Positions 17,955-60,900 of a DNA stretch of 64,000 nucleotides are shown in pieces; position 1 is the first letter of the stretch; each line of letters opens with the position of its first letter. The position numbers were made by a program, and so were the translations under genes. Origin of the DNA: a virus. The notes beneath the pieces are model-generated. The model was given only the letters and a program-made list of their open reading frames with translations, was not told where the DNA came from and searched no databases. The stretch covers positions 32,001-96,000 of IMG/VR virus record IMGVR_UViG_3300017782_000002. One strand, written 5' to 3'.

Positions 17955-18062
17955 ATGCCAGCAAAAAAGAAACAAGCAAGTTTAGGAAAAACAAAAAATA
18001 CAACTACTTATAAGAAAGGTGGAGAGAAAAAAAGTAAAAGAAAAGCTTACAAAAGAAAATAA
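17955..18062 (+). CDS. 35-aa highly basic protein carrying the YKKGGE cargo motif (not in ORF track)
   Basis: Translates MPAKKKQASLGKTKNTTTYKKGGEKKSKRKAYKRK. ATG is 2 nt after the upstream stop. Confidence 0.65.
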   Translation: MPAKKKQASLGKTKNTTTYKKGGEKKSKRKAYKRK

Positions 18063-33200: not shown

Positions 33201-36200
33201 TACAAGATGATTCAAAATTTGTTATTGGTGGTGGTCAATGTGCAGGAGATGGTAATCACTCATTAAGTTGGTGGACACCTACTGGTTTAGCAACATCTAA
33301 TATTTCTGCACATTACGTTGGATTAAAAGTAGACAATGATTCACAGTATGGTCAATTAGACAGTATTCTATTTACACCAATGTCACAACCGTTTAAATTT
33401 TCTGACTCAGCGGCTGATATAGATGCTAATACTAGATTTAGCACAGGACCTTTATTTGGTGGTGACACATACATATCAAGATATACAGAAAAAGTTACAA
33501 TGCCTTTTTGGTATGACTTTATGAAAGACTTACCTGACGGAAGTCCTTTTGATTATAGATATTATTCTAATGTACCTTTCCCAAGATATTGGATGAATAC
33601 GGAAAAATACCGTATGGATGAATTTGTAAGACCTTTAACAAATCTTACATTTAATTTTGATGAAGCTTTTCCATCTGACATGTATCACTTAGATCAACCT
33701 ACTGAAATTGATTGTGATGCTGGACTAATTGGTACACAAGATGCAAGTGGGGGTACGGTTGCAAATTATTATGAACCTGGTAACTTCCATTTACAAGTAA
33801 TAAAAGTTCCAACATCAGATAACATAATTGCTACTTTAAGTAATAGAATTAAAAGTCCAACGTGGGAAATAGCTGGGGTTGGTAAATCACAATTCATTAA
33901 TCATCCAGGTGAACAATGTTCTTGGTATCTTGCTGCTGGTGTAGACTGTCCTTCTAATCAAGTACCACAACAACCAGTTGAACCACCAAGAAGAAGAGAA
34001 GTAGCAATAGGTATTCAAGGTAGACATAGAAGTCATAACCACTCTACACCATTAATTGATTGGGGTGGAGGTAGTTGTATATCATCTGGTAAAGATGATT
34101 GGTATGACTTTGCTAATCCTGGAGATGATGTTTCACCACCAAGAACTACAGATATAGATGGTCAAGTAAGAACGTTTAAAGCTTTATATAATTGGAATGA
34201 AGGTAAATTTATGTATCCTGTAAGTAATGGATTACAAGATAATACTTATGCACATGGTGGTATTATAGGTAATCCTGCTTATAATGCTACATGTCATCAT
34301 AATGGATATTGTACAATGGGTGGAACTTGTACTGCTGCAAACGGTGATCTTACTTCTTTTGCTACTGCGGCAACTTGTACAGCTAACGGAACATGTAGCA
34401 ATCCAGTATATAATCTTGGATCTTGTAGTGTTTCAGGTTATACTACATCATCAGGTTGTACTAACGCAGGTGGTGTATGGACTACTGCTCAAGCACTTTG
34501 TACAGCTGCAGGTGAAACATGGACAGTTAATACATGGTCAGGTGGTTCATTTATTAGTGAATCAGCAAAAACACTTAGAGATTGTAACTTAGCTGGAGGT
34601 GCATGGACAGACAGTTGTATTCCTGAAGATAATCCACAAGATTTTATATTCTATAGTAAAAAACAAAAGAAAAAAGAAAAAGGGTGGTTTTCAGGAACTA
34701 TCGTACTTGATACAGGATCATTCAATATTAACGGTAATGCTACGGATGCTGGTGGTTCAAATAGTGGTAGTTGGACAGACTGTGATGGAGCTGGTGCAAA
34801 ATTTTGCAAACCGGGTGATGAAAATAGACTTGCAGGATTAGATCCACAAGATTGTCATAGAAATGTTCACACGTTAGTTACTAAAGGTGGAGCGCCTCCT
34901 AAGACTTCAGATATTGGTGATGATCAAGATAACTATAGTGCAACAATGAATGACAATAGTAATAATCCTGTTAAGAAAACAGGAGGACTTTTTGTTGAAA
35001 GCACAGGTTATATGTATACACATGTTAGTGGTATACAAGATTTCTTTGTTGAATCAGACATGAATCTTTCATTTAGAGATTGGGAAGACCAACCAAGAAA
35101 AAAACATTATGATTATTTAGAATATACAGACATACATGAATTATTCCACGTAGATCATATTAAGGGTGATAACTATTATAAGTATGATAAATCTCTTAAT
35201 ACAAGAAGATTCTGGACTGCATCTTTTGGTAACATACAAGAAAGATATTATGATCCTTACGTATCTGAAACATGTTTTACTAAATATCCAAAAAGATTAT
35301 TATACTCTTTACCCTCTGTTGGAGCACATACAAAAGAATTACAACAGTTTAAAAGAGATGAGAAAGCAGATCATTGGAGAACATTCCTACCAGAAAATTT
35401 TAGAGACTTTAAATCTAAAGTAAATACAATTGTACCAACAGGTAAAACAGGAGCAATAATATTATTTCCTACATTGTCTCCACAATTATTCCAAGGAGTA
35501 GACCAATTAAAAATGGAAAGTTCTGGTAATAAATTAACAATAGGAGACGGTGGTTTATTTAGTCAAGCTTTTCAAAGCATAACAAATTCTAATGTATCTC
35601 ATGAATATGGATCATGTGAAAGCGCTAGAAGTGCTGTACAAACACCTGCTGGTTTATTTTATGTATCACAAGCACAAGGTAAAATATTCCAATATGCAGG
35701 TAAAGGTTTACAAGCTATATCTGATATGGGAATGAAATGGTGGTTTAACAAATACTTACCATCTCAATTATTAAAAGCATTCCCTGGTATAGAAGATTCA
35801 CCTAGAGCAGTAGATAACCCTGTAGTAGCTGCAGGTGTACAATCTATATATGATCCAATGAATGATATTGTATACTTTGCAAAAAGAGATTATAAGCCTC
35901 TTGCAGATAAACTTCCTGATTTATCTTATTTACCTGATGGAAGATTTATGTACTCAGATGCTAGTACACAACAAAGTGTTGAAGTGCATCTTACAGATAC
36001 AGATTATTTTGAAGATACATCTTGGACAGTTAGTTATGACCCTAAAGCTAAAGCTTGGATTTCATTCCATGACTGGCATCCTGAATTAGCTTTTAATAGC
36101 ATAAATCATTTCTTAACAACTAAGAAAGGCGTTTCTGCTACACCTATATGTCCTCCTGGATATACATACAGTGCAACAAACAATCAATGTGAAATAGCAT

Positions 36201-37756
36201 CAACTGGTAGTCAAGCTGCAGCAGTTCTTGTAGATAACATACTTTCAACAATGACATCTTCAGGAAGTAATTGTAAACTTGATGTAGTTGTAGCTGTAGA
36301 TGTATCAGGTAGTGTTGGATATGGTAATAGTGTAAATGCTAACCACAGTGCATTAGGTTTAGCGCAAAATCAATTCGTTGCAGATTTAATAACAAACTTT
36401 ACACCAGCTATGAACGCAGGTGAATTACAATTTGGTATAAGCAAATGGTCTTCAACTTATGAGCTTATTCAATCTGGTGGTAAATGGATGACAAACAATC
36501 CTGCTGATGCTACTGCTGCAACTGATAACATATTTGCTTGTTGTGGAGGTGGTACAACGTTTGAGCAAGGATTAGATGGAGGTTTAGACTTATTAAGTAA
36601 AGCTCAGTCAGATACTGCAAATTGTAGTTTAGGTGATAGAACAGGACAATCCGGATATAAAAAAGTATTATTATTTATTACAGATGCAGGAGGTTCATGG
36701 TCTAGTACAGCTTTAACAACAGCTGAAGCAGCATGGCCAACTACAGATATATACGGTATACGTACAGTTGCTGGATCAGGTGCTCTAAGTGGAGCAAATG
36801 AACTAAGTTATAGAACTACTTTACAACCTGGCTGTGGAACTAGTACTACAACAACAGGGGGAGATTACAACTATACAGCAGCTGGAAATGTTGCATCTTT
36901 ATCTACTGTAGCGACTACAATCACTAGTCAAGTATGTTCTCCACCACCAGTTTGTACATGTCCAACAGGTTACACTTTAGTAGGAGCATGTGACGGTGTA
37001 ACTACACCTAACTGCACACAGACAACATGTAGTTGTTCAGGTTTTCCAGGATATGGTACAGCAAGTCTTGTTGAATCAGGAACGTGCGGATCACCAACAG
37101 ATCCATTAATGTGTACTTGGAATTATGCTGACACAGTAACAGCAAACTATAATGTAGGAGGATTATGGAGACATAACTCAAGAACAGACAAGTTTGCTAA
37201 TTTCTATGGTATTGATTATCCTTGGGAAATAGATCTTATTGAAACATCTGGACAACAAGTAACTACTCTTAGAAGTGTTGAGTATATGTTAGAATCATAT
37301 GTATATAAAAATGACGGTAGAGATAGATTCCATGTTTTAGATTTTAACTTTGATGAGGCTGAAATTTACAACTCTGAACAAACATCAGGTTTACTTAAAT
37401 TAGATCTTTCACCTAAAAACAATGTGCCTTTAATAACAACTTATCCTATTATAAATGCAAATGATATAAGTATACTTTATAGTAAGGAAGAACAAAAATA
37501 TAGATTTAATCAGTTCTGGGATGTTACAAATGACAGAGGAGAATTTTCTGGTGCACAAAACTCTATATATATAACAAAACTAAATGGTTATATAAGAGAT
37601 TTAAATATAGCTAATATCAACCTTTTAAAATCATCTTTTGAAAGAAAGAAATTTAGACACTATTATAATCATGTAGTGCTAAGAAGACTAGTATCTGGTG
37701 ACAAGAAAATGTTACTTAGATTGGAAAACACAAAACTTAACGCATCACAAAGATAA
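30206..37756 (+). CDS. Tail muzzle/stabilisation protein (P22 gp10-like) with large insertions including a vWA domain
   Basis: Beta-propeller-like N-terminus. C-terminal patterns FVESDMN, GLFYVSQAQGKIFQY..ISDMGMKWWF and WTVSYDPKAKAWISFHDW. vWA MIDAS motifs DVSGS/GGT/ITD. Confidence 0.8.
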   Translation: MAKKKKQQQQPKPKSTSSVFTNTPMKGMIKDTHDGYLNKDNWSHARNAINNSVDGDTGVIGNEPANILCANIPYTVIGGIHLYGDKWIIYSTDNEGTLNDKSSEIGEFDDSTCTYNTLINDSCLNFHKDHLVIGVAKENFDCSWQVYWDDGNNPSRTINLSDIPFKKEIAPSSTPACTIYQNITPLQLDCEKIRLAPLLDTPNLELTKASEGGQLPNGMYQVFIAYSINDQIIGDYLGASNMQSLWSHENNQGSLNLKISGVDKEFEWMQVVVRTRVHNGFTSYVLGYYSTETTNLNIDYLDPDLTKVKSSRLLLRNPAYEKSSGMFEVNDYLIRAQPTEQFDFNYQPLANNIKTEWVSATYPAEYYREGGNKPTFLRDEVYTFFIRFIYNTGEKSKSYHIPGRSATGNEVSLDLTANSWDGVALQYKTQNTATFTATTNVVLPDGGIIQSYGDMAYWESGEKYPATDPIRYNNGSMDLCGMPIRHHKMPDENTHVTTRLSTNGAGGTGSTHIQIIGAQFSNIAAPLDNSGNVIPNIVGYEVLVGNRDGNKSIIAKGIIRNMMSYERYEHKRSLQAGAGTNYYSPLGDIQNSPTSFNGGGPIAAANADIAAATPNALGETDIQYGLMANYPYNDMGIDPYLIYRGNGDVRVEEAPWLSGIFGTEPIESNWITGTGSLLKPTQDNSIHMTQDNRGMAEFTFDHHTFHSPDLNFTHMYLAPSEMVVYKTLIGKAEGNFRKSEKHPGAKLLKNKAVLIAAIIGVGYALNHMRGKRNVKINTARSQSTGETMAVGSGMTPMPGTGTAAAAVNVLLNLPGVVVGAVADMAFNTVVDVASVFGAGKLARQIGTPIYQMIETGTTGLMAGHIGPNKTIEYVGSDFTSVPTLFSMITGVLTFLNYVAIGGDKIIDLILKMVNYQDYAYKYNSHGFYSTYVPFAEGNCNNAWTGSTCTAVYRHQMKSARYIKPGLQFMGGTAINNLHRPSTVVLNTNTKVDSPGHYGLQDDSKFVIGGGQCAGDGNHSLSWWTPTGLATSNISAHYVGLKVDNDSQYGQLDSILFTPMSQPFKFSDSAADIDANTRFSTGPLFGGDTYISRYTEKVTMPFWYDFMKDLPDGSPFDYRYYSNVPFPRYWMNTEKYRMDEFVRPLTNLTFNFDEAFPSDMYHLDQPTEIDCDAGLIGTQDASGGTVANYYEPGNFHLQVIKVPTSDNIIATLSNRIKSPTWEIAGVGKSQFINHPGEQCSWYLAAGVDCPSNQVPQQPVEPPRRREVAIGIQGRHRSHNHSTPLIDWGGGSCISSGKDDWYDFANPGDDVSPPRTTDIDGQVRTFKALYNWNEGKFMYPVSNGLQDNTYAHGGIIGNPAYNATCHHNGYCTMGGTCTAANGDLTSFATAATCTANGTCSNPVYNLGSCSVSGYTTSSGCTNAGGVWTTAQALCTAAGETWTVNTWSGGSFISESAKTLRDCNLAGGAWTDSCIPEDNPQDFIFYSKKQKKKEKGWFSGTIVLDTGSFNINGNATDAGGSNSGSWTDCDGAGAKFCKPGDENRLAGLDPQDCHRNVHTLVTKGGAPPKTSDIGDDQDNYSATMNDNSNNPVKKTGGLFVESTGYMYTHVSGIQDFFVESDMNLSFRDWEDQPRKKHYDYLEYTDIHELFHVDHIKGDNYYKYDKSLNTRRFWTASFGNIQERYYDPYVSETCFTKYPKRLLYSLPSVGAHTKELQQFKRDEKADHWRTFLPENFRDFKSKVNTIVPTGKTGAIILFPTLSPQLFQGVDQLKMESSGNKLTIGDGGLFSQAFQSITNSNVSHEYGSCESARSAVQTPAGLFYVSQAQGKIFQYAGKGLQAISDMGMKWWFNKYLPSQLLKAFPGIEDSPRAVDNPVVAAGVQSIYDPMNDIVYFAKRDYKPLADKLPDLSYLPDGRFMYSDASTQQSVEVHLTDTDYFEDTSWTVSYDPKAKAWISFHDWHPELAFNSINHFLTTKKGVSATPICPPGYTYSATNNQCEIASTGSQAAAVLVDNILSTMTSSGSNCKLDVVVAVDVSGSVGYGNSVNANHSALGLAQNQFVADLITNFTPAMNAGELQFGISKWSSTYELIQSGGKWMTNNPADATAATDNIFACCGGGTTFEQGLDGGLDLLSKAQSDTANCSLGDRTGQSGYKKVLLFITDAGGSWSSTALTTAEAAWPTTDIYGIRTVAGSGALSGANELSYRTTLQPGCGTSTTTTGGDYNYTAAGNVASLSTVATTITSQVCSPPPVCTCPTGYTLVGACDGVTTPNCTQTTCSCSGFPGYGTASLVESGTCGSPTDPLMCTWNYADTVTANYNVGGLWRHNSRTDKFANFYGIDYPWEIDLIETSGQQVTTLRSVEYMLESYVYKNDGRDRFHVLDFNFDEAEIYNSEQTSGLLKLDLSPKNNVPLITTYPIINANDISILYSKEEQKYRFNQFWDVTNDRGEFSGAQNSIYITKLNGYIRDLNIANINLLKSSFERKKFRHYYNHVVLRRLVSGDKKMLLRLENTKLNASQR

Positions 37757-40700
37757 TGAATAATAAAGATATATTAGGATATAGTGATGGTTCTCCTTAC
37801 AGCAGTGAGCCTTTTATAGATATTAATACACCTAACGGACTTATAGATATGTCAAACACAGGAAGACCAATATTAGCAAACGGTGTAGAGCTTGCTCCTT
37901 ATTCTGGTTTACATAATATGGGCACAACTAATGTAAGAGAAATACCATTAGATAAATTTCAAGGTCCTTTAAGATTAGGTGAAGTTGGTAGAAAATTAAC
38001 AAACTTTTTTAAACCTAGAAATATTTTTAACTTCAGTAAAACTCCTATGACTCCTATGCTTACTAATAAGAGCTTTACTAAATTTGGAGATCCAGGTGAT
38101 GTAAGACAATATAACTTAGGTGATTGGACAAACTATATAAATGATGTAAATAATTTACAAAGACCTGCATTACCTTATAGTCCTGTACAAACTAGAAGTC
38201 TTTCTATAGGTAATGCTTTAGTTAACAATACAGATAAAGCAGGTAATATAAAATTATCTACACTACAAAATTTTACAAATAACTTAGATAGTAAAGTTAC
38301 AGGAGCACAAGTACAAGCAGACAAACTATTGTTACAAAGTACAATAGATGATTTAAAAATAACTAACCCAAGTCTTACGGATAAAAGCAAGATACCTTAT
38401 TCATTATTTGAATCAGAAGTAAATAAAAATATAATACAGTTTCAACCTAAATTAGTAAATACACATGCTCATGTAGGGATGGATGCATTAGGTTACAAAA
38501 TAAGAAAAAGTGAAGGAATTGGAGCTGTTACAAACAAAACAATACTTTGGCAAAATAATCAAATAGGTAATCCTATTAGTGATTCTCATTTTCCTACAAA
38601 TGAAAAGGGACCAACTTACGGACATACAAGATTTTTTAGTACAGACAAAAAACTTTTTAACATATTAGAATTACAATCAGATGAATTTCAAAGACCTTTA
38701 CTAGCTAAACTTAAAAAAGCTGATATACGTATTATTAGTGCTCAAAACAAAAAGAAGGAAAAACAAAACTTAATAGATAATTGGTCTCCAAATGAAAATA
38801 GCATAATGCCTCCAAACCAACAGTGGGCAAATTATAAGTCACAAGCAAATGAAGAAATAAAAAGATATGATGATCAAATTAAAAATGCAGAATATGATAG
38901 AGATCAAATTGGAGGTTTAATATCAACTAGATCAGCTAATACAAATAAACAAATAAATGCATTAGAAAAAAATCACATGTCAAGGATGTTTGCAGAAACA
39001 GTTAAGTATGCAGCAGACAATGGTTTTCAAACTGTAAGGTACCCTCACCAAAAAACAGTAGCTGTTATTGAAGGTTTTACACCAAGTATTGAAGATAAAG
39101 ATGTATTAGTAAATCCTTGGACACGAAGTAATACAGCTGATTTTGATGTGGCTATTAATGAGTTAAGTACAGGTAATACTTATGGTCATACTACAGTAGC
39201 TAAAAAACACGGACCTTTTGTAAATATACCTGATGAAGTAAATTCAGTATACTCTATGGGTAGCAACCCAAGAATAACACATGAAGAAAAAGGTTGGGCT
39301 CCAAAAAAAGATAGAAAGCCTAGAATGAATGCTTATGCAGATGATGAAAGTTATAGACAATCATTGTATGATGATGGATGGACTGATGCAGAAATTGCTG
39401 ATTATAACAGAAATATAGGTCACTGGAAAAATCAACATATATCTTTAGATAATAATGGTAAATACACTATGACTGTAAGAAATGCAGATGGTGATCAATA
39501 TAATACTGCTCCAGGTTGGGCTTCTCCAAGCATTGAAATACCAGAAGAAACTGCAAAGAATTTACAAGGAGGTTTATATCATATACAAGAGAATGGTTCT
39601 TGGCTTTATGTTGGTAAAGACAAAGATGCTGTTACTAAATATACACAGGATATAAGAGAAATAAATCATAAAAAAATAGAGCAGCCAGAAAGGCCGGTAT
39701 TTAACATAGATGACTACGGGGGTGTAAAATATAAAAAAGACAAAAATAAATTTCTTAAAGATGGTGTTACAGAAAATCCTAATTATAATAAACGTGCAAA
39801 AAATAGCAAAGGTGAACTTACTATGGAAAGAAAATGGTCTGATCAACAAACTATTCTAAGAAAATATAATGAAAAGGATTTTAAAAAATATTTAAAATCT
39901 ACTTTTGGTAAAGATGCAACTTACAAAGTAGTCTATGATGAAAAAGGATATGCTTGGTATGAGTTTGATTTACCTGTTAATTGGAAAGCAGGTGAAGCTC
40001 AAATTAAAGCTTATAAGCAAGGTGGTGAAATAGGAGGATATAGATTATCTAAGTTTAATGATGGAGGTGGAGTAGATTATTCTGACGCAGAAGAAGTTAC
40101 TATTAACGGACAAACTTATTACAGACATAAAGTAAAACCTACTCAAGGTAAAGGTGAAATAAGTTCAAAGTATGGTATATGGAATCAAGAAGCTGTCTTA
40201 AATTCAATTAATAGTAAATTTACTAATATAAAAGATCAACCTGATTATTCTAAAATGGTTAATAGAATGTGGGAAGGTGATTACGTATTAGTAGGAGGTC
40301 CTGAATTTGAACCACATGTACAGTATACAGAAGACAGAGGATCATATGCTAATTCATTTGAAAGCATTCCGCAAGAAGAACTATGGTCTGCAATAACTGC
40401 TATTGGACATATTGAAACAGGCAGCAAAGTAAAATATAAAAGACCAGAAGGTAGAAAATATAAAAACACAACTGATGACCCACAATACTTAGCAGACAAT
40501 CATCCATTTACAGGTATATATGAAAGTGGTATGGATAATGCATATGGCTTTGTAAGTAGTGCTAATGCTTTAGGTAGATTTGGCATTAAAGAAGTTCTTG
40601 TAGACAAATATGCTAAAGACATATTAGGATATAAAGAAGGAGAAGATTGGAGAGGTCAGTATCTTAAGAATAAAGAAGACCAACGTAAATTAATGAAACA

Positions 40701-41706
40701 TTTAATTACGCAAGTTTATCCTGATGAGCTTGTCCAAATAAGACACTTTCATCCAGAGACTTCTGCACAGTATTCAGATTTTGAATTATTAGCAGCTATA
40801 CACAAAGGTGGTCAAGGTAACGTTAAAAAACAATTGTCAGAGGGTCAATTTTCAGAACAAGCAGTTGTAGGTGATATATCAATGGGAGGATATACAAAAA
40901 GAATTATGAACTATCTAGATCCTGATTTAGATATATCTAACTCATCTTTCTTTATGAAAAATAATCCTGCACACAATTTCTTTAAAAACAAACCTAAATA
41001 TAAGTTTGGAGGTTCTACAAATAAAGAAGAAGTTAGAAATGAAATTATAGCTGACATGCTAGACAATGGAGCTTTCTTACCAAAGTTTAAACAAGGATCA
41101 GAAAAAAATATAGAAGGTGTTTTAGGTAACTATAGAATTAATAAGTCTTATGATAATAAAAGACAATTACCTTTTATAGAATATAATAGTAACTCTGAGT
41201 CTTTAGAAAACAATAGAATTTATTATGATAAAGATGATGCTGGTTATGATAACTTTAATATTATTGATGTATATACACAAGAAAATGATCAAAAGAAAAG
41301 ACACAATAGAATAAAAAATATAATTTATAAATATGATCAAGGGTTACAATTAAATCCTATTGAGTTAGAAACAATGAGAGAATTAGGATTATTAAACAAT
41401 CAACCTAGAAGACAAAAAACAACAGAACAAGTAGTTGTTAAACCTGTTAACAATGGTGTTGATATTCCTTTAGAAGATATTAATGCTTCAAAAGATCTTT
41501 ACAATAAAAAAGACGGTAACAATAAAGGTATATCACTAAAACATCAAATATCTATTTATTCTAAATTAATAAATGGTATCTTTGACAAAGATGAAAAACT
41601 AAAAAAAGTTAAAAGGGTATATGATAGACTAAACAGTCTATATTATAATGATGCAAAGGCTAGTAAGATGACTGTGTTAGACTACATGAAGTCATTAAAT
41701 AATTAG
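37756..41706 (+). CDS. Multidomain virion cargo protein (ELQSD-type domain, LysM-like, lytic-transglycosylase-like)
   Basis: HF..GHTR..LELQSDEFQ..AADNG; YYRHKVK..ISSKYGI; IAIGHIETG..ALGRFGI..LLAAIHKGGQGNVKK; several GG motifs. Confidence 0.65.
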   Translation: MNNKDILGYSDGSPYSSEPFIDINTPNGLIDMSNTGRPILANGVELAPYSGLHNMGTTNVREIPLDKFQGPLRLGEVGRKLTNFFKPRNIFNFSKTPMTPMLTNKSFTKFGDPGDVRQYNLGDWTNYINDVNNLQRPALPYSPVQTRSLSIGNALVNNTDKAGNIKLSTLQNFTNNLDSKVTGAQVQADKLLLQSTIDDLKITNPSLTDKSKIPYSLFESEVNKNIIQFQPKLVNTHAHVGMDALGYKIRKSEGIGAVTNKTILWQNNQIGNPISDSHFPTNEKGPTYGHTRFFSTDKKLFNILELQSDEFQRPLLAKLKKADIRIISAQNKKKEKQNLIDNWSPNENSIMPPNQQWANYKSQANEEIKRYDDQIKNAEYDRDQIGGLISTRSANTNKQINALEKNHMSRMFAETVKYAADNGFQTVRYPHQKTVAVIEGFTPSIEDKDVLVNPWTRSNTADFDVAINELSTGNTYGHTTVAKKHGPFVNIPDEVNSVYSMGSNPRITHEEKGWAPKKDRKPRMNAYADDESYRQSLYDDGWTDAEIADYNRNIGHWKNQHISLDNNGKYTMTVRNADGDQYNTAPGWASPSIEIPEETAKNLQGGLYHIQENGSWLYVGKDKDAVTKYTQDIREINHKKIEQPERPVFNIDDYGGVKYKKDKNKFLKDGVTENPNYNKRAKNSKGELTMERKWSDQQTILRKYNEKDFKKYLKSTFGKDATYKVVYDEKGYAWYEFDLPVNWKAGEAQIKAYKQGGEIGGYRLSKFNDGGGVDYSDAEEVTINGQTYYRHKVKPTQGKGEISSKYGIWNQEAVLNSINSKFTNIKDQPDYSKMVNRMWEGDYVLVGGPEFEPHVQYTEDRGSYANSFESIPQEELWSAITAIGHIETGSKVKYKRPEGRKYKNTTDDPQYLADNHPFTGIYESGMDNAYGFVSSANALGRFGIKEVLVDKYAKDILGYKEGEDWRGQYLKNKEDQRKLMKHLITQVYPDELVQIRHFHPETSAQYSDFELLAAIHKGGQGNVKKQLSEGQFSEQAVVGDISMGGYTKRIMNYLDPDLDISNSSFFMKNNPAHNFFKNKPKYKFGGSTNKEEVRNEIIADMLDNGAFLPKFKQGSEKNIEGVLGNYRINKSYDNKRQLPFIEYNSNSESLENNRIYYDKDDAGYDNFNIIDVYTQENDQKKRHNRIKNIIYKYDQGLQLNPIELETMRELGLLNNQPRRQKTTEQVVVKPVNNGVDIPLEDINASKDLYNKKDGNNKGISLKHQISIYSKLINGIFDKDEKLKKVKRVYDRLNSLYYNDAKASKMTVLDYMKSLNN

Positions 41707-41725
41707 ATAATGTGCTTGATTTTTA

Positions 41726-41734
41726 GTATATTAT
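41726..41734 (+). promoter_or_regulatory. Putative late promoter element GTATATTAT
   Basis: Identical to the elements at 18067, 19438 and 25122; 29 nt upstream of the ATG at 41764. Confidence 0.5.
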
Positions 41735-41763
41735 AAATGTGACAGTATAACTGTGTAAGAACT

Positions 41764-44700
41764 ATGGCAAGAAAATCAAAAAATAAAAAACAACAAACTT
41801 TTAATGTTTACCCATACCTAGGTGGGTATCAACACTTTATGAGGAATGGCGGTGCTTTACCTAAATTTGAAGAACAAGGTGAAACAGAAGAAACTCAGCA
41901 ACAAAAAATGAAAAGGTTGTATAAAGAACAATTTGGTGATAGAGATAAGTTTAGTTATCTTGGAGGATTAGGTAGAGTAGGCTTGTTTGGCAACATGATA
42001 CAAGGAGTAGGAAAGTTAGGTAATACTATAGGTGGGGCTTTCAAAAAAGAAAGTTATGACCCAGGAGGAAAATATTCAAAATTTGACCAACAAGGAAATT
42101 TAAGATTTGGTAGATCTAGTTTTACAAACACTACTGATGAAAACGCAATGCTACATGGAGATAACTTAAAAAAGTATCTCAGCATGTCAAAAAAAGAAAA
42201 AGAAGAATGGGTTAATAGTGGTGGACGTAATTCTGATTTATGGTGGTCATTAGATGATATGACTTATGGTAAACGTAACTTCATGGAAAGAAATGAAGAC
42301 GGTTTAGCAAAATGGGATGGTAGTAACTATAGAGTTGCTAAAGCAAGAAACGAAATGTTTAAAGATCCTGACACAGATGAAAGTTTGTTTAGTGTAAAAC
42401 AAAAAAACAAAGATGGCACGTTTACTTATTTTAATGAAGATGGTACTGTAAACTATAATAAAGACGGGCAAACTCAATATGATGTAATAGAAGAAAGCAC
42501 TGGTCCAGGAGGTTTAGCTGATGTCAATGCTGGTATAATGAATTTTGATTTTGATGTAGAAGGAGATAATAAATTAGTAAGCTTTGATCAAAATACAAAT
42601 CAAAAAATTACTACAACAGATCCTGAAGGTAATGTGACTGAAACAGAAAATAAAGTAAGTGGAACAACTCCTTATGATCCAAATAAAATTTATGGACCTT
42701 ACACAAAAGAATCTGAAACAGTAGAATCAAGACAAGAAAGAATAAATAGAGAATTAGAAGAAAACAGTGGGAATGATGAAACTTTAAGATACGGTAAAGA
42801 GCTTAGAGGCATGCTTACAAGATATGATGCAGGTGGTGATGCTGCTGATAATATGAATGACAGCACTGCATACTTTGATCATGATAGAACTGACGTACCA
42901 TTCTATGAGCATGGTGGACCACATGAAGAAGGTGAAACAAATTATCCTGGTCAAGTACAGCTACCTGGAGACATGGTTGATCCTGCAGCTAATTTTACAC
43001 CTCCTACTAGTGATCCTTTTGCACCATTACCAGGGTTTAACGGACCTGTAAATCTAGAAGCAGAATCAGAAGAGATTGCTAATTTTGAAAGACCAAACTT
43101 TGGTACAAGAATAAAAAACTTTCTACAAGGTAACAATGATTTAAACAAACCACCTACTCAAGCTGATGTTATGACAGATGACATGGTGGAAAACATAGAT
43201 AAACAAGTAGATCCAAATGCTCCAAGAGTATTAGACCCTACTAGTCAGAATGATATGCAGGGTGTAGCTACTGAAGAAGAAAAAGACATGGGTATTGATG
43301 TTAACTATGGTGATACTAAAGGTCAACAGATACTTAATAAAGCAAAAGAAATTAGTAAGACAGGTGCTATTGGTGCTGGCTTAGATATAATTGGTGGAGT
43401 ATCAGAATTTGCTGTAGATAAATTAACACCAGTTCTATCAAGTTTTGCAGAAGGTCAAGATAGACATGAGAATAAATTAAAATCTAGATCTAGAAGTGTA
43501 GAAGATTTTGCACCTATGATGGAAGAAACTGCAGGTACAGGTAACAGAGGTTTTTATGATGTAAATAAAGGAGGCTATGGAGATGACCTATATGGTACAG
43601 GAGAAATATATGGGCAAGCACAACAAGGTAAAGAATTAATGAATGAACAACCTGCTCCAGTAAGTATAAATGATTACATGAAAACAAACATGGATGTGTT
43701 AAGATTTAATAAAGAGCATTTAGATAAACAGAAATCTTTCTTAGGTGATTACAAAAATGGTGGAGCTTTACCAAAGTACCAAGCTCTTGGTCAAGTAAGT
43801 AATACTAGAAAATTATTTAATTATATAAATCCATTTAAATTTAAACTTGCTGATAATGTATTGTTTAGTGCAGGATCAAAAACAGAACCTTTTACTAAAA
43901 TAAACATGTTGCAGACAGGGGCAAATAAAGAAAACAACATAGGATTTTTAAATTTAAAATATGACAATCCATTAGGTGTTAGTTCTGAAATGAATAGTGT
44001 ACGTGAAGAGTTTAGAAAAATGGGTATTGCTACTGCGCTTTATGACGAAGGAGTAAAACAATCTATTAAGCAAGGTTATCCTGGTCTTATAAGTGGTGAG
44101 ACTTTAGATAGTCCAGAAGCTACAATAAACATATGGAAAAATTTTGATCTTGAAATAATGAATCCTGATAGAACTAGAATGGATAAGATTAAAGGGAGAA
44201 ATCAATTTGTAGATGCTGGTGATACTGATTTTAGTTCTCTTATAGTAGATGGAAAATATACAGGTAGTCCAGTAAGATTAAAAGGACTAAATAAAAAAGG
44301 TAAAACAAAATTAAGTGAGTTTAGAAGTTTCTTTGATGAATTAAGTGCTGAAGATAAAATGATATATCAAATGAATGCACAAAAAGTAGGTGGATTTAAA
44401 TGGGACATGCATTCACCTCTTGGTAGAAGTATATTAAATGGTTTTAGAACTAAAAAAGTTATAGGTGATGGTAAAACATTTACAGAATATAACAGACAGC
44501 CAATATACATAGCAGGAGGTTTAGGTGCTTACAGTCTAATGTCTGGTGACGGATTAGATTCAGAATTACAAGAAAAAGAAAAACAAATATATTTAGAGAA
44601 GAGAGCTAAAGAAGAAGGAATGACTGTAGAAGAATTTAAAAAATCTATAGATGATACTTCACGTATAATGAAAACTGATCCTAAACTATATGAATATTAT

Positions 44701-45813
44701 AAAGATTCTGCAGATGATTTGTATAAAGCAGGAGGTCAACCTGGGTTTTGGGCAAACGTTCATGCAAAAAGAAAAAGAGGAGAATCTCCTGATAAAAGTA
44801 AAGTCTCTTCAGAAACAGCAAAAAGATTTAATTTAAAATACGGAGCTGAGATACCTGAGTTTTTAAGAGGTGGAGGAACAGCAGCTGAAGGAGCAGTTTT
44901 ATGTGATGCTTATGATAAACCTGTAGATCCTGAAAAAGCTTGGGCTGCTGATACTGTAAATAATTATAAAGGACCTGGTATGAAATATGGTGGAACTTTA
45001 CCTAAATTCCAGGGACTAAAAAGAAGTGAGGTTAAAAATTACTCTAAAGCTTGGAATACAAATAAAAGAGACACTAAAGATATTATAAGTACATTAATGC
45101 AAGACGGATATAACTCAGAAACAGATACAATTATATCAAGTTATCATCCTTCTATGCCTATAGAAGATCAGCGTCATGGTCAAAGAATGCATAACCTTGC
45201 TACAAATGTTAATTCATCAGGTCTTTTACCTTTTATGCATTCATCAAGTGCTAATTTTGCAGGTGAACTAGGTGCTACGTATCCATTTGTTGATGCAACA
45301 GGTTATGGTTCATACTTAGCAGTACCAAAAATGAATGAAGGTGGAAACTGGTTTAGTAAAGCAGTAGACTATGGACAAACAGCATTGGGAGCTGCAGGAC
45401 TTACTCCTGGTCCAGTTGGTTTAGGTGCAGATGCTATTAATACAGGTATATCAGGAATTAGAGCTGGTTATAATAAATTTATTGGAGATGATGAATCAGC
45501 TAAAAAGCATACAGAAAACATGGCATTAAACGCTACGTCAATGATACCAGGGCCTGCAGGATGGGCAGCAGGTGCATCAGGTTTGGCAAAAGATATGGCA
45601 GGTTATGCTGGAGCAATAGATGATAACAAGAGTATAACTACACAAGTAGCAGATTCTATGCAAACAAAACCTTCTCAACCAACTATGGCTGTAAAAGGAA
45701 CTGGTGCAATAGACAATACTGCTAAACTTGGAGGAGAACAAGAAGCTGAAATAGATATGGATTTATATTATGAGTTAATGAAAGCGGGAGCTGATATTAA
45801 AATTTTAGGATAA
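41764..45813 (+). CDS. Multidomain virion cargo protein with GNAT acetyltransferase and PT-TG-like modules
   Basis: SVREEFRKMGIATALYD (GNAT motif A); LGAAGLTPGPVGLGADAIN (PT-TG-like); 11 GG/GxE motif copies. Confidence 0.65.
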   Translation: MARKSKNKKQQTFNVYPYLGGYQHFMRNGGALPKFEEQGETEETQQQKMKRLYKEQFGDRDKFSYLGGLGRVGLFGNMIQGVGKLGNTIGGAFKKESYDPGGKYSKFDQQGNLRFGRSSFTNTTDENAMLHGDNLKKYLSMSKKEKEEWVNSGGRNSDLWWSLDDMTYGKRNFMERNEDGLAKWDGSNYRVAKARNEMFKDPDTDESLFSVKQKNKDGTFTYFNEDGTVNYNKDGQTQYDVIEESTGPGGLADVNAGIMNFDFDVEGDNKLVSFDQNTNQKITTTDPEGNVTETENKVSGTTPYDPNKIYGPYTKESETVESRQERINRELEENSGNDETLRYGKELRGMLTRYDAGGDAADNMNDSTAYFDHDRTDVPFYEHGGPHEEGETNYPGQVQLPGDMVDPAANFTPPTSDPFAPLPGFNGPVNLEAESEEIANFERPNFGTRIKNFLQGNNDLNKPPTQADVMTDDMVENIDKQVDPNAPRVLDPTSQNDMQGVATEEEKDMGIDVNYGDTKGQQILNKAKEISKTGAIGAGLDIIGGVSEFAVDKLTPVLSSFAEGQDRHENKLKSRSRSVEDFAPMMEETAGTGNRGFYDVNKGGYGDDLYGTGEIYGQAQQGKELMNEQPAPVSINDYMKTNMDVLRFNKEHLDKQKSFLGDYKNGGALPKYQALGQVSNTRKLFNYINPFKFKLADNVLFSAGSKTEPFTKINMLQTGANKENNIGFLNLKYDNPLGVSSEMNSVREEFRKMGIATALYDEGVKQSIKQGYPGLISGETLDSPEATINIWKNFDLEIMNPDRTRMDKIKGRNQFVDAGDTDFSSLIVDGKYTGSPVRLKGLNKKGKTKLSEFRSFFDELSAEDKMIYQMNAQKVGGFKWDMHSPLGRSILNGFRTKKVIGDGKTFTEYNRQPIYIAGGLGAYSLMSGDGLDSELQEKEKQIYLEKRAKEEGMTVEEFKKSIDDTSRIMKTDPKLYEYYKDSADDLYKAGGQPGFWANVHAKRKRGESPDKSKVSSETAKRFNLKYGAEIPEFLRGGGTAAEGAVLCDAYDKPVDPEKAWAADTVNNYKGPGMKYGGTLPKFQGLKRSEVKNYSKAWNTNKRDTKDIISTLMQDGYNSETDTIISSYHPSMPIEDQRHGQRMHNLATNVNSSGLLPFMHSSSANFAGELGATYPFVDATGYGSYLAVPKMNEGGNWFSKAVDYGQTALGAAGLTPGPVGLGADAINTGISGIRAGYNKFIGDDESAKKHTENMALNATSMIPGPAGWAAGASGLAKDMAGYAGAIDDNKSITTQVADSMQTKPSQPTMAVKGTGAIDNTAKLGGEQEAEIDMDLYYELMKAGADIKILG

Positions 45814-45817
45814 AATT

Positions 45818-48703
45818 ATGAAAGTAAAAATAGGAAATTTACCAGAAGGTTTTAAAATTGTTAATGGCAAAGTTGTAAGAACAATGAAAGCAGGTGGTAC
45901 TGTTAACAATACTTTAGGACCAATGAACAGAGAAGATGCTAACCTTGAAGCAGAAAAAGGTGAAACAGCTTTGACAGACCTTACTAATGATGGTTCTTTT
46001 GAACTATATAATATAGGAGGTAAAAGACATTATGATGGTGGTACTCCATTAAATCTACCAGAACAAAGTTTTGTGTTTTCTGACACACGCAAAATGAAAT
46101 TTACAACAGAAGAATTAAAACAATTAGGTATTGATTCTAAAAAGAAAATGACTCCTGCAAAAGTATCTAAAAGATTTCCTTTAAATAAATACATTGAAAT
46201 TTTAGAAAATCCTGATTCAGATAAAATAGCTGTAGAAACTGCAGAGGATATGTTAAACAAAAACAAAGTAAAATTATCTCAAATAGCTTTCTTACAAGAA
46301 CAAAAAAAGAAATTTGCTGACGGAGTACCTTTAGCTGCATATCCTTATATGATAGAAAACGGAATAAACCCACAAGAGTTTGAAGCAAAACTACAACAAG
46401 GGCAACAGCAAATGGCAATGGGTCCTGATATGAACGCATTACAACAATTTACAGGAGGCCCACAAATGAGTGTAGGTGGAGGTACAGATAACCCTGGCTT
46501 TAGAGCATTACCTGATTTTGTACAATCTAAAATATTAAAGAATGCTGGTATGGGTGGAGAAGAAACACATACAATGCCAGATGGTACAGTACACCCTGGA
46601 GCAACACATGAAGAGTACATGGCTATGATGCAACAAGGGCAAAGTAATATGTACAAAATGGGAGGATCAGCTATATGCCCTACGTGTGGTAAAAAATTAC
46701 CATGCGGGTGTAAATATAAAATGGGGGGATCCCCTTTTGAAGAAAACCCTCTTAAAAGATTTACTGAAGGTGGTGCACCTGAAGAAATGTTAGGAATGCC
46801 ATCAAGACAAGGTAGGTTATCTGATAGTCAAATTGCTTTGCAGAACATCATGATGTATAGACAAAAGCTTATGGATGAGTATGAATCTACTGCAGCATAC
46901 GTAAATGATAATCCTAATGTCTTAGCAGATCCTGAAAAAGCTAATGAATTAAAAGCATCTATACAAACAATGGAGACTCAGTTGCGTGAAATAGATATAC
47001 AAACACAATCTATACAACAGAGTATGATGCAACAAAGCTTGCAAGTAAATCCTTTTGAAGGTATGCGTGGTGTAGAGCCGCAACAACAAATGGCTCAATT
47101 TGGTAAAGAATTAACTGGATCAGATGCTTGGGGTTATGGTGGAGATGATGCAGATGGTAATCCTATTATTGGTAGTAGTGAACCTGTACAAGAAACATAT
47201 AATCCAAAGCAAACTGGTTATGAATCTCATGCAAAAGCATTTGATATTATGTCTAGTAAAGATTTTGATCCAGTTAGAAAACTTTGGTTAGATAAATATA
47301 AAGAAGAAGCTGCTAAGAATACTACAGGAAAAAATAGATGGGTTTCAAAAAAATCAGATGGAACAGCATATACGGACGCTGAATTATTTCATATATTTAA
47401 TAGAATGAATCAATACCTTTCTGCTGTAAATGCTGGAGAAGGTAGAAACCCAGGTGAAGTTTTTGGAAAAAATGCAGCAGGTAATACAGATGAACTAGCT
47501 ATTAAATATGGATATGGTAATGCAAAACCTACACAAGAAGAGATTAGAATCTTTCAAGGTATGTATAAATCTTTAGATAATGCAAAAATTGAAGATGAAA
47601 CAGGTTTATTAGATCAAATTAATACTACACCTATAGGACAAGAACAAGAAGGAATGAAGAATGCCCTTGGTGAAAATGTATCTGATGTAGATGGTGCATT
47701 AGGTCACACAACAGGAGGCCAGTTTTATAGAGCAGAAAATCCAGATGAAACCAGTACTACTAATACTGAAGTGACAAATGAATGTGATGCAGAAACTAGG
47801 GCTAAAATCATGCAAGAATGTAAAGAGTTAAAATTAAATTTTGATCAAAAAACATGTAGTTGTGTACCTAAGCCTGATGATTTTGAAACACCTAAAACTC
47901 CTTTGTATGAAACATTCCCACAGGATGATCTTATTGTAGCAACTAAGTCAGCACAGTTAGCAGGATTAAAACAAATAAACCCTGTACTAGAACCTAGTGT
48001 TGATCCAACATTAATGAACCCTATGTATGTAGATCCTAGACAACAGCTGTCTGTTATAGAGGCTACTGCAGCAGAAGCTATTAGACAAAACCCAGATCAA
48101 GCTACAGCTATTATGAGTAAAATGCAAGATGCGTCTGAAGGAATTATTAATAAACATGAAAATCTAAATACAAAGATTTATAATAATGCACAAGCAATAA
48201 ACGTACCTTTGATTAATGATGCTGCTGAAGCTAATGCTTCAAAATTTAAAACCTTTATGGATGAAAGTAATGCTTCTGCAGAAAATTTCCAAGTTGCAAA
48301 TATGGAAATGACAGACAACTTAGTAAATGCTGTTAATGATCAAATGAGTAATGCGGATCAACAGTACATGGAAAATTTAAAAAATCCACAATTCTGGTAT
48401 AGTCCGCAAGCACATAATATTGAATACTATAATCCAAAAGGTTTTGACGGTAACACTGGGCAACCTACAACTGATAGCATGTTAGCTTATGAGGAGTATA
48501 AAGCTTTAGCTGATAAAGATCCAGTTTTTGCTGAGAAGTATTTTGATAAAATATATAAACCTAAGAAAAATCCTGCAGATGAAGTTAATATAACTAGAAA
48601 CAATGCGCAAGAAACAGTAAAGTATGGAAAAGAAACTTCACGTAAAAGAGACTTACTTAGAAGCAAGAGAGAATTAAGAAAATGGATTTTAGGATACAAA
48701 TAA
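45818..48703 (+). CDS. Virion cargo protein, crAss-like cargo-1 type
   Basis: ANLEAEKGE..IGGKRHYDGGTPLNLPEQSFVFSD resembles, from recall, the conserved N-terminal domain of the crAss-like post-muzzle cargo protein. Position fits. Confidence 0.6.
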   Translation: MKVKIGNLPEGFKIVNGKVVRTMKAGGTVNNTLGPMNREDANLEAEKGETALTDLTNDGSFELYNIGGKRHYDGGTPLNLPEQSFVFSDTRKMKFTTEELKQLGIDSKKKMTPAKVSKRFPLNKYIEILENPDSDKIAVETAEDMLNKNKVKLSQIAFLQEQKKKFADGVPLAAYPYMIENGINPQEFEAKLQQGQQQMAMGPDMNALQQFTGGPQMSVGGGTDNPGFRALPDFVQSKILKNAGMGGEETHTMPDGTVHPGATHEEYMAMMQQGQSNMYKMGGSAICPTCGKKLPCGCKYKMGGSPFEENPLKRFTEGGAPEEMLGMPSRQGRLSDSQIALQNIMMYRQKLMDEYESTAAYVNDNPNVLADPEKANELKASIQTMETQLREIDIQTQSIQQSMMQQSLQVNPFEGMRGVEPQQQMAQFGKELTGSDAWGYGGDDADGNPIIGSSEPVQETYNPKQTGYESHAKAFDIMSSKDFDPVRKLWLDKYKEEAAKNTTGKNRWVSKKSDGTAYTDAELFHIFNRMNQYLSAVNAGEGRNPGEVFGKNAAGNTDELAIKYGYGNAKPTQEEIRIFQGMYKSLDNAKIEDETGLLDQINTTPIGQEQEGMKNALGENVSDVDGALGHTTGGQFYRAENPDETSTTNTEVTNECDAETRAKIMQECKELKLNFDQKTCSCVPKPDDFETPKTPLYETFPQDDLIVATKSAQLAGLKQINPVLEPSVDPTLMNPMYVDPRQQLSVIEATAAEAIRQNPDQATAIMSKMQDASEGIINKHENLNTKIYNNAQAINVPLINDAAEANASKFKTFMDESNASAENFQVANMEMTDNLVNAVNDQMSNADQQYMENLKNPQFWYSPQAHNIEYYNPKGFDGNTGQPTTDSMLAYEEYKALADKDPVFAEKYFDKIYKPKKNPADEVNITRNNAQETVKYGKETSRKRDLLRSKRELRKWILGYK

Positions 48704-57900: not shown

Positions 57901-60900
57901 ACAATATAGCTGCAGCACTTATAGCTGCTGATCCTGAATTACAACTTCTAGAAGCTCAATTAAGATTAGCAAAAAGTAAAGCTAATAAAATAATAAAAGG
58001 TTTTGATGGGCATGATATAGAAGACATAGAAACATTTACAAGATGGGTGCAAGATAACCTGCCTGCAGAAATAAGAATTAATGTTGAAGACTTAACAACA
58101 AAACTTAAAGACGGTTATATTACTGTAGGTCAGTTCTATATGCAAATGAAAGATATTTCTAAGGGTATAATGGGACTTGAAGGAGTTATAACAGTAACTA
58201 AAAATTCACCATTTAAATATCATGAAGCATTTCATTCTGTATTTAGATTATTACTTACAGATGCAGAGATTAAAAAATATTTAGGAATTGCTAAAAAAGA
58301 AGTAAAAGCAAAACTTAAAACAGAAGGAACTACTTTAGATGCAGCTCTTGAAAACATGAGAAAGCAACATGTAATGTATGCTGAGATGTCTAAAAAAGCA
58401 TTAGAAGAAAGATACTATGAAGAGTATCTTGCTGATGAGTTTGAAAAATTCAAAATGGATCCAAAAAGTACAAAGACTGATTCTGAGAATAAATCAATGT
58501 TCCAAAAAATAATAGACTTTATAGTTGAGTTACTTACTGAGTATAGACCTAGACAACTTAATTCTTTATTTAGTGATATAGATTCAGGTAAATATAAGAA
58601 TGCTTCTATAAAAGAAAATAGGTTTACAGATTCTTATGAAGGAGATGTAGCTTTTAAACTTGAATTATATGATCCTAAGTTTATTGAAAGAAAATCAACA
58701 GACGGTGAATCTAAACTAAAGCAAGTAAAAAACTACATGCCTTCTGATCAACTGCATGAAATAGTTTCTGGTATTTCTAATTTATATACAGGTAGATTAG
58801 ATAAAGCAGAAGCACCTATTGATGCTAAAATACTTCTTGATGAAACTATTAATGATTGGATTGAAATGTATAATCCAGAAAGAGACTTTTATCATGATAG
58901 AGGTGTATGGTATGATGACAATGTAGATGAGCTTACTCTTTTATATGAATCTCTTTTAGATCAGATTGGTGATTTAAGAGAACTTGTTAAAAGAAATATA
59001 TCTGAGTTTGCTGGAATAAATATTGAAGATGCTGATTATACAGAAGTTAATGAAAAAGAAACAGGAGATTATGATAAGTCTGCTGATATGTTTGGTGGTT
59101 ACTCAGGATTACCTAAACGTTTAAGACATTTAATATCACAAACTACTTTAGAAGAAGAAGATAGATACGGTAATAAATATGTAAATACTGAAACAAAAGA
59201 ACCACTTATTGTAGGAGTTAATCCAGAGTACGTGTACAATGGACTATTAAAGGTTCTTGCTAATACGCCTAATGACCTTAAGATGTTTCAGAAAGCTTGG
59301 TCATTTTCACAAAACAATCACCATACTAAAGAGGTTATAAAAAACTTATTTAGAGAAATAGGCATATTAGAATTTGCACAAAGCGGTGAAATGTTTAAAG
59401 AAGATGCTGAAATACCATCACAAGTAAATAACTCAGCATTATATCTTTCATTTATAAAAGGATTTAGAAAATATAGAGTTGACAATATATTTGCACATAC
59501 TGATACAGATACTGGTGTTACACATTTATATGCAGCAAATAAAAAAGATGATGCTCATGTTACTGTTCAACAATGGGCTGCAGACTTTAACAGACAATAT
59601 CCTAAATTAAAGCTAGAAAACTCATTAGAAAGAGAAGAAGCAAAAGATGCCTTAAGTGAATTAACTTCAATGTTAAAGCTTACATCAATACCTGAGACTT
59701 ATAATTTAGCAGTAGAAGTACAAGCTGTAGCAGAAATATTAAAAAATGTTGCTGGTATGAACATACACCAAAATTATATATTATACAGTATATATGATGG
59801 TCTAACTACTTTAACAGAAGATCAACAGGTTTTATATGATGCATACTCTTTTGTTGATCCTATGCAAGTTGAAGAAATATCATACATTAGACAATCTTTA
59901 GTTTCTGGTGAAAATTTATATTTAGATAACCAAACTGTATATGAATCTGAAGAAGCAGACGCAAAACCAGAATTTGCAAAAGGTGGTGTAAAAGGAAGAC
60001 TTAGAAAACTAGCATTAAATAATTCACAATTTGATGAAGCAGTTGGTGCCTCAACGTTTATAGATTCAGAAGGAAACAGAAGATATGCTCACCAAGATCC
60101 AACACTACACTTAGAAAAAATTGCTGAGATGGAAGGTGCAGAATATATAAACGACAAATTAACAGAAGATGTGTTTTTTGAAAAGAACATGTTATTAAAA
60201 GATCCTAAGTTTCAAGCAATGGTTGCTGCAGGTCAAGTTAGAGCTTTACGTATTGTTGGAAGCAAAGAGGGTGCTTTAAGATTAACTGAGTCAGGATTGT
60301 CATCAGAGCGTGGAAGAATGGTTGGAGATACAGGTGTAAGTTATGGTAAATCAAAACCAAGAGAATTTGCATTAGACATGATACATGCTTACCTTTTTAA
60401 CTATAACAGACAATCTCCAGGCAAGACACAAATTGGTACAGATGATAAAGGTTTAGAATTTGCAATAGCTCCTACAAACATAAGAGTTATAGAAGCAAGT
60501 AATACTGGAGATTTTGTAGCAGTACCTGTACATAAGATGCTAAACAAAAGTAAACAAGGTATAGAGATTAATGATAACGCTCTAAACATGTTTATAAATG
60601 AATTAAAAATTGAATTTGATAGAGCAAGAAAGTTTCACATTGATGAGCAAGAAGGTGTAGAAAATCTAATAGATAAAAAAGAAAGATTAGGTAAGTTACA
60701 TACTACTTATACCCTGTTGTCTAAATTAGTTACAGAAAACCGTAATATTAAAACAGAACTTCCTGGTATAGGTAAAGACCAAAGAGCTGCAATCACAGAC
60801 GGAAAACAAAACATATATTTATCTACAGTTGCAAAAGCAGTAACCTCTAATTTATCTCAAGACCAAGAAGGTGTAGTTGATATAGATGGTGAAATGTTTG

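Follow-up and report, generated by a model that had tools for sequence, protein, structure and literature searches.

A short glycine-glycine peptide as a probable seam between exchangeable modules in the cargo proteins of a marine crAss-like phage

Locus and gene order

The window, that is, the whole stretch of DNA analysed here (64,000 nucleotides), corresponds to positions 32001-96000 in a complete virus record of 119.8 kb (IMG/VR IMGVR_UViG_3300017782_000002), which was identified as a marine crAss-like phage. Our subject is a group of three consecutive open reading frames (ORFs) on its plus strand, to which all features of these genes described below also belong: cargo gene A (P0001, 37756..41706, 1316 amino acids (aa)), which directly follows the muzzle gene (30206-37756, matching PF25731); cargo gene B (P0002, 41764..45813, 1349 aa, 36 homologues); and cargo gene C (P0003, 45818..48703, 961 aa, 183 homologues). 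Their products carry a short recurring motif, [Y/F/M]-x-x-G-G, with a long form G-[GA]-x-[LI]-P-[KE]-[FY]. It is found after a short basic N-terminal leader, between modules, and before the C-terminal helix of cargo B. We refer to this motif as the seam, and very probably it is a conserved junction peptide of crassvirus cargo proteins and, at the same time, a point at which modules are exchanged.

The three genes come after the muzzle gene and ahead of those of the virion RNA polymerase: next in line are a 1047-aa ORF and then a 4887-aa ORF with the virion RNA polymerase. The order is that of crAss001 and of the genomes L002-L008; the synteny around cargo gene A is kept in L002-L005, and synteny together with motif enrichment in cargo B is repeated in six phages. 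In crAss001 the same slot holds the cargo proteins C1 (gp45) and C2 (gp46) and then the RNA polymerase proteins, all of which have been found in virions (PMC10172136). The three marine proteins are thus positional equivalents of these crassvirus cargo proteins and would, by analogy, probably be present in the particle.

Homologues of the three proteins come from marine and other metagenomes only, and the GenBank phages (50,697 records) contain no relative of cargo B, cargo C, the related protein P0163 or the capsid region. Searches of the three proteins against Pfam and PHROGs returned nothing significant, and among 21 members of the cargo C family the sole Pfam match is one LysM domain.

The seam motif in the cargo proteins

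The earlier note on this DNA had described a repeated linear tag in five proteins that share no other similarity. The coordinates it quoted were exact wherever checked, namely for YKQGG (40012), YKFGG (40999), MRNGGALPKF (41839), RYGKEL (42787), YKNGGALPKYQ (43750), YKAGG (44722), KYGAEIPEFLRGG (44836), and MKYGGTLPKFQ (44980). Enrichment was assessed over the whole genome (99 ORFs, 38,208 aa) by comparing the three cargo proteins (3,626 aa) with the other 34,582 aa, and the motif is indeed concentrated in the former. The pattern [YFM][KR]xGG occurs nine times in cargo and twice elsewhere (shuffle mean 0.44, Fisher 3e-8), [YFM]xxGG 19 and 23 times (shuffle mean 3.3), the long form G[GA]x[LIVM]P[KE][FY] five times and never, and a third, GKE form four times and never. 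The observed counts were reached by 0 of 2000 shuffles of the cargo proteins. A Y, F, or M stands at position -3 of the glycine pair in 19/43 cases (44%) in cargo and in 23/167 (14%) elsewhere (p 3e-5). As to the list of five, the three cargo proteins are enriched, but the 1609-aa protein at 20262-25091 is at background and a 35-aa peptide has a single YKKGG. That the three have no other similarity to one another was borne out by BLASTP (E > 0.2).

The regular expressions were defined after the sites had been seen, so these p-values are optimistic, and independent data from another phage (L013), from six related phages, and from the gp45 family therefore matter more. L013 encodes a non-homologous protein in the cargo position with 12 copies in 645 aa (a density also given as 12 in ~310 aa). 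Cargo B of the six related phages has 2.3-7.4 copies per 1000 aa, the present one lying at 7.4, and the muzzle and 1047-aa proteins have 0-2. In gut crassviruses, the gp45 family has retained F-A-x-G-G in three places, as discussed further below. We also noticed that separate cargo proteins of a lineage have a common flavour of the motif, M-Q-x-GG in L004 and L005 and Y/M-K-x-GG here. The GKE form looks, from the alignments, like a diverged long form, and KYGKELASYLKGG in the protein P0167 matches KYGGALPKYQxGG position by position.

One explanation put forward in the earlier note, a capsid-targeting sequence, fared poorly as a general tag. Densities of 1.0 and 0.8 copies per 1000 aa, which is background, were found for the 1047-aa protein and the 4887-aa RNA polymerase fusion (the copies of the latter are at residues 295, 457, 551, 1043, and 2687), and the cargo of Cellulophaga phage phi14:2 (g068-g070) shows no enrichment. 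Since the motif is missing from other proteins that need packaging, it is unlikely to be a universal packaging tag, and the phi14:2 result indicates that it is widespread but not universal in Crassvirales. A docking role for the three cargo proteins in particular is possible.

Modular layout of the cargo proteins

In an alignment of 12 homologous sequences with identities down to 45% (A1), the basic N-terminal leader of cargo B, followed by MRNGGALPKF (41764..41868), is invariant at residues 11-26 (Q11-M26) and at G29, L32, and P33. A cluster of RYGKEL, YDAGG, and YEHGG sites follows at 42787..42918, where divergent homologues have the full long form (KYGGSLQKF and similar), and then QQGKEL, a GKE form (43621..43638) in which G617, Q618, Q620, G622, and E624 are invariant in A1. 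A GNAT-like cassette (residues 663-991, 43750..44736) is bounded by YKNGGALPKYQ and YKAGG. Its acetyltransferase signal is weak (PF00583 E 0.15, PDB profile E 0.09), and the α/β block is modelled with a predicted local distance difference test (pLDDT) score of 50-70. The next stretch is a basic module starting with QPGFWANVHAKRKRG and ending in KYGAEIPEFLRGG (44737..44874), which is present or absent among homologues; in A1 this indel runs between two motif halves. Further on are the long-form seam MKYGGTLPKFQ (44980..45012), a 317-nucleotide cassette (45028..45344), and finally KLGGE ahead of a conserved C-terminal helix ending in AGADIKILG (45724..45810, invariant in A1). The same C-terminal tail, there with M-x-x-GG ahead of it, occurs in the otherwise unrelated cargo B proteins of L004, L005, L007, and L008.

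Conservation in cargo B is highest over the first 25 residues (41764-41838) and the last ~25 (45736-45810), and the leader and the C-terminal helix have the look of docking or packaging elements. A relative with 72% identity (L002:10001-13455) has its cargo B gene split into two ORFs of 579 and 572 aa. Since the break is away from the motif, a frameshift or an assembly error is the probable cause.

In cargo A, a seam of YKQGG and FNDGG (40012..40068), conserved in homologues, precedes a LysM- and SLT-like cassette (residues 771-1081, 40066..40998). The identity of the cassette is only a lead: its look-alikes in the ESM Atlas score 0.86 for LysM, 0.83 for SLT, and 0.81 for the two together, and sequence searches of the cassette against Pfam and PDB gave no match. 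The cassette is missing or replaced in ~10 homologues, and in P0164 and P0184 a different N-terminal part is attached just past FNDGG, at residue 775. At its other end, YKFGG and a long-form remnant, GAFLPKF (40999..41088), mark the start of a conserved C-terminal module. The C-terminal match begins at residues 1078-1083 in 10/13 partial homologues, five of which (P0191, P0192, P0193, P0195, and P0197) have Y/F-K/N-x-GG at or near that start.

Cargo C allowed the placement of the motif to be examined on a structural model. AlphaFold, run with 79 homologues, gave a mean pLDDT of 70, with confident blocks at residues 29-199, 334-407, 461-640, and 655-874, a terminal helix at 941-958, and low-confidence stretches between them. 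Segments of pLDDT < 50 account for 25% of the protein and hold eight of the nine motif sites (binomial 1e-4, on the prediction), and the seams are thus predicted to lie in flexible linkers. The N-terminal seam MKAGG (45884..45898) coincides with an isolated pLDDT dip at residues 23-28, and its glycines G26 and G27 are conserved to at least 90% in 119 sequences. YKMGG, a second YKMGG, and FTEGG (46652..46774) are in linkers of pLDDT below 50 and form an insertion hot spot, foreign blocks being inserted in relatives between residues 279 and 304. QFGKEL, of the GKE form (47096..47113), is in the low-pLDDT linker 408-441, and KYGKET (48620..48637) is in the low-pLDDT segment 914-941, just ahead of the C-terminal helix. 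A Foldseek search with the model found no match at E ≤ 0.001, and VIA-align returned generic helical hairpins only (residues 331-415).

Between the two YKMGG copies of cargo C is a cysteine knuckle, C-P-T-C ... C-G-C (window 46667-46714), which is the site of large insertions in relatives.

Many copies in predicted disorder could also suggest a multivalent sticker, in which aromatic/Met-Lys-Gly-Gly units in disordered stretches bind cargo to cargo or to DNA and so form the protein zone that has been seen in crassvirus capsids and bring about co-packaging. The extreme density in P0163 and L013 and the lineage-specific flavour common to separate cargo proteins are in keeping with this idea. However, other packaged proteins do not have the motif and the flavour pattern could reflect cassette exchange alone, and we consider the sticker very improbable.

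Exchange of modules at the seam

The claim that a linear motif punctuates modular cargo held up when syntenic cargo genes of relatives were compared: the domains between motifs vary and the seams persist. The clearest cases involve transfer between neighbouring genes. The cargo B block 663-991 or 663-1083 is found inside the cargo C homologues P0065, P0063, P0066, P0036, and P0062, joined at motifs and placed between the two YKMGG of cargo C. The junctions read NM-YKMGG/DLPKAQ in P0065 and GPG-MKFGG/DPFSPLRKFTDGG (DPF...) in P0066, the latter MKFGG being the equivalent of the MKYGGTLPKFQ seam of cargo B, and at both the flanking alignments overlap by the motif alone. Overall, 4/7 starts and 7/7 ends of the transferred block are at most 4 residues from a motif.

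A recent transfer is still visible at the DNA level in the 317-nucleotide cassette of cargo B, which is 96% identical to cargo B of L007, an otherwise unrelated phage (303/317 identities, blastn), and is the sole DNA match between the two genes. Its 3' identity stops exactly at AAATGAATGAAGGTGG, encoding MNEGG, and in both phages its 5' end is 5-6 codons past a motif. Some cargo B homologues have this cassette and others do not, the gap extending from LPK to MN[DE]GG. The basic module of cargo B (residues 992-1023, window 44737-44832, from QPGFWANVHAKRKRG to RFNL) recurs with 62-69% identity, flanked by motifs, near the N-termini of P0161, P0163, and P0160, which are unrelated motif-dense proteins of another lineage (L013). 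A crude permutation test was made on BLAST ends, which are fuzzy in divergent homologues; 32% of the breakpoint clusters of cargo B had a motif at most 10 aa away, where 17% would be expected (p 0.008). Taken together, the alignments indicate that modules are exchanged in frame at the seam, among related phages from one to the other of the adjacent cargo genes B and C, and also between distant phages.

Crossovers inside the motif would also be expected if it were a recombination signal only, with the DNA giving microhomology and the peptide being merely a tolerated linker. The glycine-rich motifs (GRMs) of the T-even gp38 adhesins offer a precedent (PMC3157838), and the earlier note had likewise suggested DNA micro-homologies for swapping payload cassettes. 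The location of the crossovers agrees with that suggestion, but the DNA itself does not: the glycine codons (GGT, GGA, GGC, and GGG) vary freely across copies and orthologues while the amino acids stay unchanged, and the longest exact run common to two copies is 13 nucleotides. In addition, the bulky residue alternates between Y, F, and M, which have no codon similarity, and the N-terminal copy is conserved though nothing is exchanged ahead of it. In A1 the core (bulky residue, G, G) has a conservation of 0.80 and the flanks 0.63. Because the motif persists while its codons drift, selection is, as far as these comparisons go, on the seam peptide and not on the DNA, and we regard a signal acting through DNA only as improbable.

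Cultured relatives and the question of cleavage

In crAss001 gp45, F-x-x-GG occurs at residues 17 (FDTGG), 260 (FAEGG), and 559 (FAYGG), so that, like its family, it has the motif after the basic leader, after the tail-barrel segment, and after the portal-bound segment. Two stretches of gp45 have been resolved by cryogenic electron microscopy, residues 214-245 within the tail barrel and residues 425-552 on the portal, within the capsid (PMC10172136). The motifs at 260 and 559 are 15 and 7 residues past these resolved segments, and one of them is between the two compartments. The correspondence does not extend to detectable homology. The profile PF25725 (crAss_CARG1, the portal-bound gp45 domain) had no match to the cargo proteins at E ≤ 5 by hmmscan and none in the whole genome at E ≤ 1. 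A comparison of the cargo C and gp45 families by hhalign placed cargo C 46-121 on gp45 438-512 at a non-significant E of 0.12 (probability under 1%). Separately, a G-x-[KR]-H-x-x-G-G element recurs in cargo C, P0163, p-crAssphage gp47, and crAss002 gp30.

A layout of leader, modules, and repeated short sites raises the possibility of a polyprotein that a protease packaged in the virion would cleave at the motif or next to it. The most plausible candidate is the putative zincin of the RNA polymerase fusion, whose HEAFH motif (58221..58235, plus strand) is at residue 2103 of the 4887-aa ORF; Pfam found no match in the first 2000 aa of this ORF, and HExxH is absent from the three cargo proteins. 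Cutting would take place either inside the capsid or once the chain has been ejected, and it would set free the leader, the C-terminal docking helix, and single effectors, such as a wall-cutting module in the periplasm and a GNAT-like module in the cytoplasm. Such processing would account for the portability of modules between genes B and C, which is expected if the address of the gene is irrelevant. It also agrees with the short leader of each cargo protein, followed by a motif within ~25 residues, with the motif directly ahead of the conserved C-terminal helix, with the presence of HEAFH in a co-packaged giant protein, and with the conserved FAEGG between gp45 segments in two compartments. 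Zincins have been proposed, without test and in general terms, to process crAss polyproteins and polyvalent proteins (10.1101/2020.03.07.982082; PMC5512222).

Several observations speak against cutting. The crAss001 structural paper (PMC10172136) mentions neither the motif nor cleavage (0 mentions). The published crAss001 peak lists from matrix-assisted laser desorption/ionization (PMC6235969, gel bands 1-10) were examined by mass fingerprinting. Bands 1-2 are gp44, the muzzle protein, which migrates well above its size; band 3 is gp47 and gp50 (z 9.5 and 8.4), and band 4 is gp49 and gp44 (z 13 and 7). The proteins gp47, gp49, and gp50 thus run at ~270 and 150 kDa; their peptides extend from close to the N-terminus as far as the C-terminus, and one of the matched masses agrees with a gp47 peptide that runs across YLQGG. 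Because of these full-span peptides and the YLQGG-spanning mass, the data hint that the large crAss001 cargo proteins are unprocessed in the virion and that the bare motif is insufficient for cutting. Moreover, the 4887-aa fusion, itself supposed to be cut, is not enriched for the motif.

The search for a matching protease and site was also unfavourable. The earlier note had likened the motif to the phiKZ-type (S/A/G)-x-E site, but E follows the glycine pair in only 3/43 cargo cases, and neither this form nor the wider prohead-protease consensus, (S/A/G or L/I)-x-E, describes the motif. The residues after G-G are variable, and E is not among the top ones in 1,293 family contexts. Profile searches of the genome detected no S78 (PF04586), C39, or C48 peptidase, nor did Pfam reveal a protease among the structural genes. 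S77 (PF03420) had no match in the genome either, but its control was silent in every genome; the control for C39 (PF03412) rang in 7/14 genomes, and the absence of C39 applies to the phage genome only.

Two further known sites were compared and set aside. Adenain-type sites have the form (M/I/L)-x-G-G, and the bulky residue of the seam is one position further away; sortase sites have the form LPxTG, to which LPK[FY]Q does not fit.

On balance, processing at the motif seems unlikely, though it is the least unlikely of the alternatives to an uncut junction. Slightly less likely again is its more specific version, in which the seam is the recognition site of the virion-packaged zincin and the cargo genes encode effector polyproteins with swappable cassettes flanked by the same cut site. 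If that version were true, one packed chain would release separate proteins in the appropriate host compartment during injection, and the result would be a plug-and-play delivery system extending from ocean phages to the gut crAss001 family.

Other features of the window

The structural block of the window includes the portal of P22 type (10246-12999), the major capsid protein (14508-16136, Pfam match PF23898), and tail ring proteins 2 and 1 (28641-30202). The muzzle protein, with 2516 aa, is almost twice as long as crAss001 gp44. It has HELFH at window 35135 (residue 1644) and a weak VWA_2 match at residues 2027-2161 (E 2e-4, below the Pfam cut-off). The 35-codon ORF at window 17955-18062 (plus strand), which holds the single YKKGG mentioned above, directly follows the stop of a 235-aa gene and encodes a very basic peptide, of which 13 residues are K and 2 are R. 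This may be a small virion peptide, either internal or DNA-binding, or it may be a product of chance.

Discussion

We propose that the seam works uncut. The G-G pair would provide a hinge, and the bulky and basic residues ahead of it a small handle; each module could then be stored, unfolded, and passed through the tail like a separate bead on one uncut chain, with the seams probably docking on a common partner in the particle. Recombinants joined seam to seam would stay functional because every module has the same seam, which would explain why cassettes move freely. An uncut hinge or handle as such is a tentative proposal, held at slightly under even confidence, and the overall explanation by an uncut junction peptide that is also an exchange point, which we favour, is evenly balanced between right and wrong.

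A number of points weigh against this explanation. The hinge or handle role is something we infer. The polyprotein-like layout, the leader followed by a motif at the N-terminus, and the co-packaged zincin fit cleavage equally well. gp45 and gp46 were undetectable in crAss001 bands 1-10, and the gel data are silent on gp45. Not every copy is in a linker, as YNIGG of cargo C (46007, residue 64) is inside a confidently folded domain and appears structural, and YDPGG of cargo B (residue 98) is in a strongly conserved block and may be internal to a domain. The AlphaFold model of cargo B 150-1349 (pLDDT 37) is too poor for linker placement. The breakpoint permutation for cargo C was not significant, so that the specific junctions carry the weight. 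Cargo A alone is weak, with three copies, yet these copies are conserved and mark module borders.

Parts of this picture are known, namely modular cargo and polyvalent proteins (PMC10172136, PMC5512222) and glycine-rich motifs that guide exchange (PMC3157838). The closest relatives by position are C1 and C2 of crAss001, which are likewise largely unstructured (PMC10172136); they differ in having no significant sequence match to the marine proteins, which are larger and have more copies and, in addition, the long LPK[FY] form. Polyvalent proteins (PMC5512222) are, like the three cargo proteins, large multi-module proteins encoded beside virion genes and thought to be delivered with the DNA, often with lysozyme and acetyltransferase-type modules and with rapid domain shuffling. 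In contrast to many of them, the marine proteins have no zincin of their own (a frequent, non-obligatory component there) and their modules are almost all unknown to Pfam. The signals for effector domains are weak, as detailed above for the GNAT-like and LysM/SLT-like cassettes, but the modularity is clear. No junction peptide is described in PMC5512222, in which 'linker' and 'glycine' have 0 occurrences.

As in the marine cargo, the GRMs of T-even gp38 (PMC3157838) are short conserved motifs between variable segments, with exchange within or near them. They form, however, the folded core of one domain, whereas the seams are in predicted linkers between whole modules, and the DNA of the seam is not conserved. 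The internal proteins of T4 and phiKZ and the Dar proteins of P1 likewise have a short N-terminal leader and repeated short sites; P1 DdrB and DarA are processed before head packaging, according to work cited in PMC5512222. The marine cargo differs in that it does not follow the x-x-E consensus and in that no homologous protease was detected. Our literature search found no published description of a seam peptide punctuating crassvirus cargo proteins.

One short peptide at module borders provides a simple grammar for reading giant genes that are otherwise unannotatable, and it accounts for the movement of payload modules between genes and between phages. With gp45 of crAss001, both cutting and anchoring of cargo become directly testable in culture. 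Should the seam accept inserts of any kind, it would offer a natural place at which to engineer protein payloads into phage particles.

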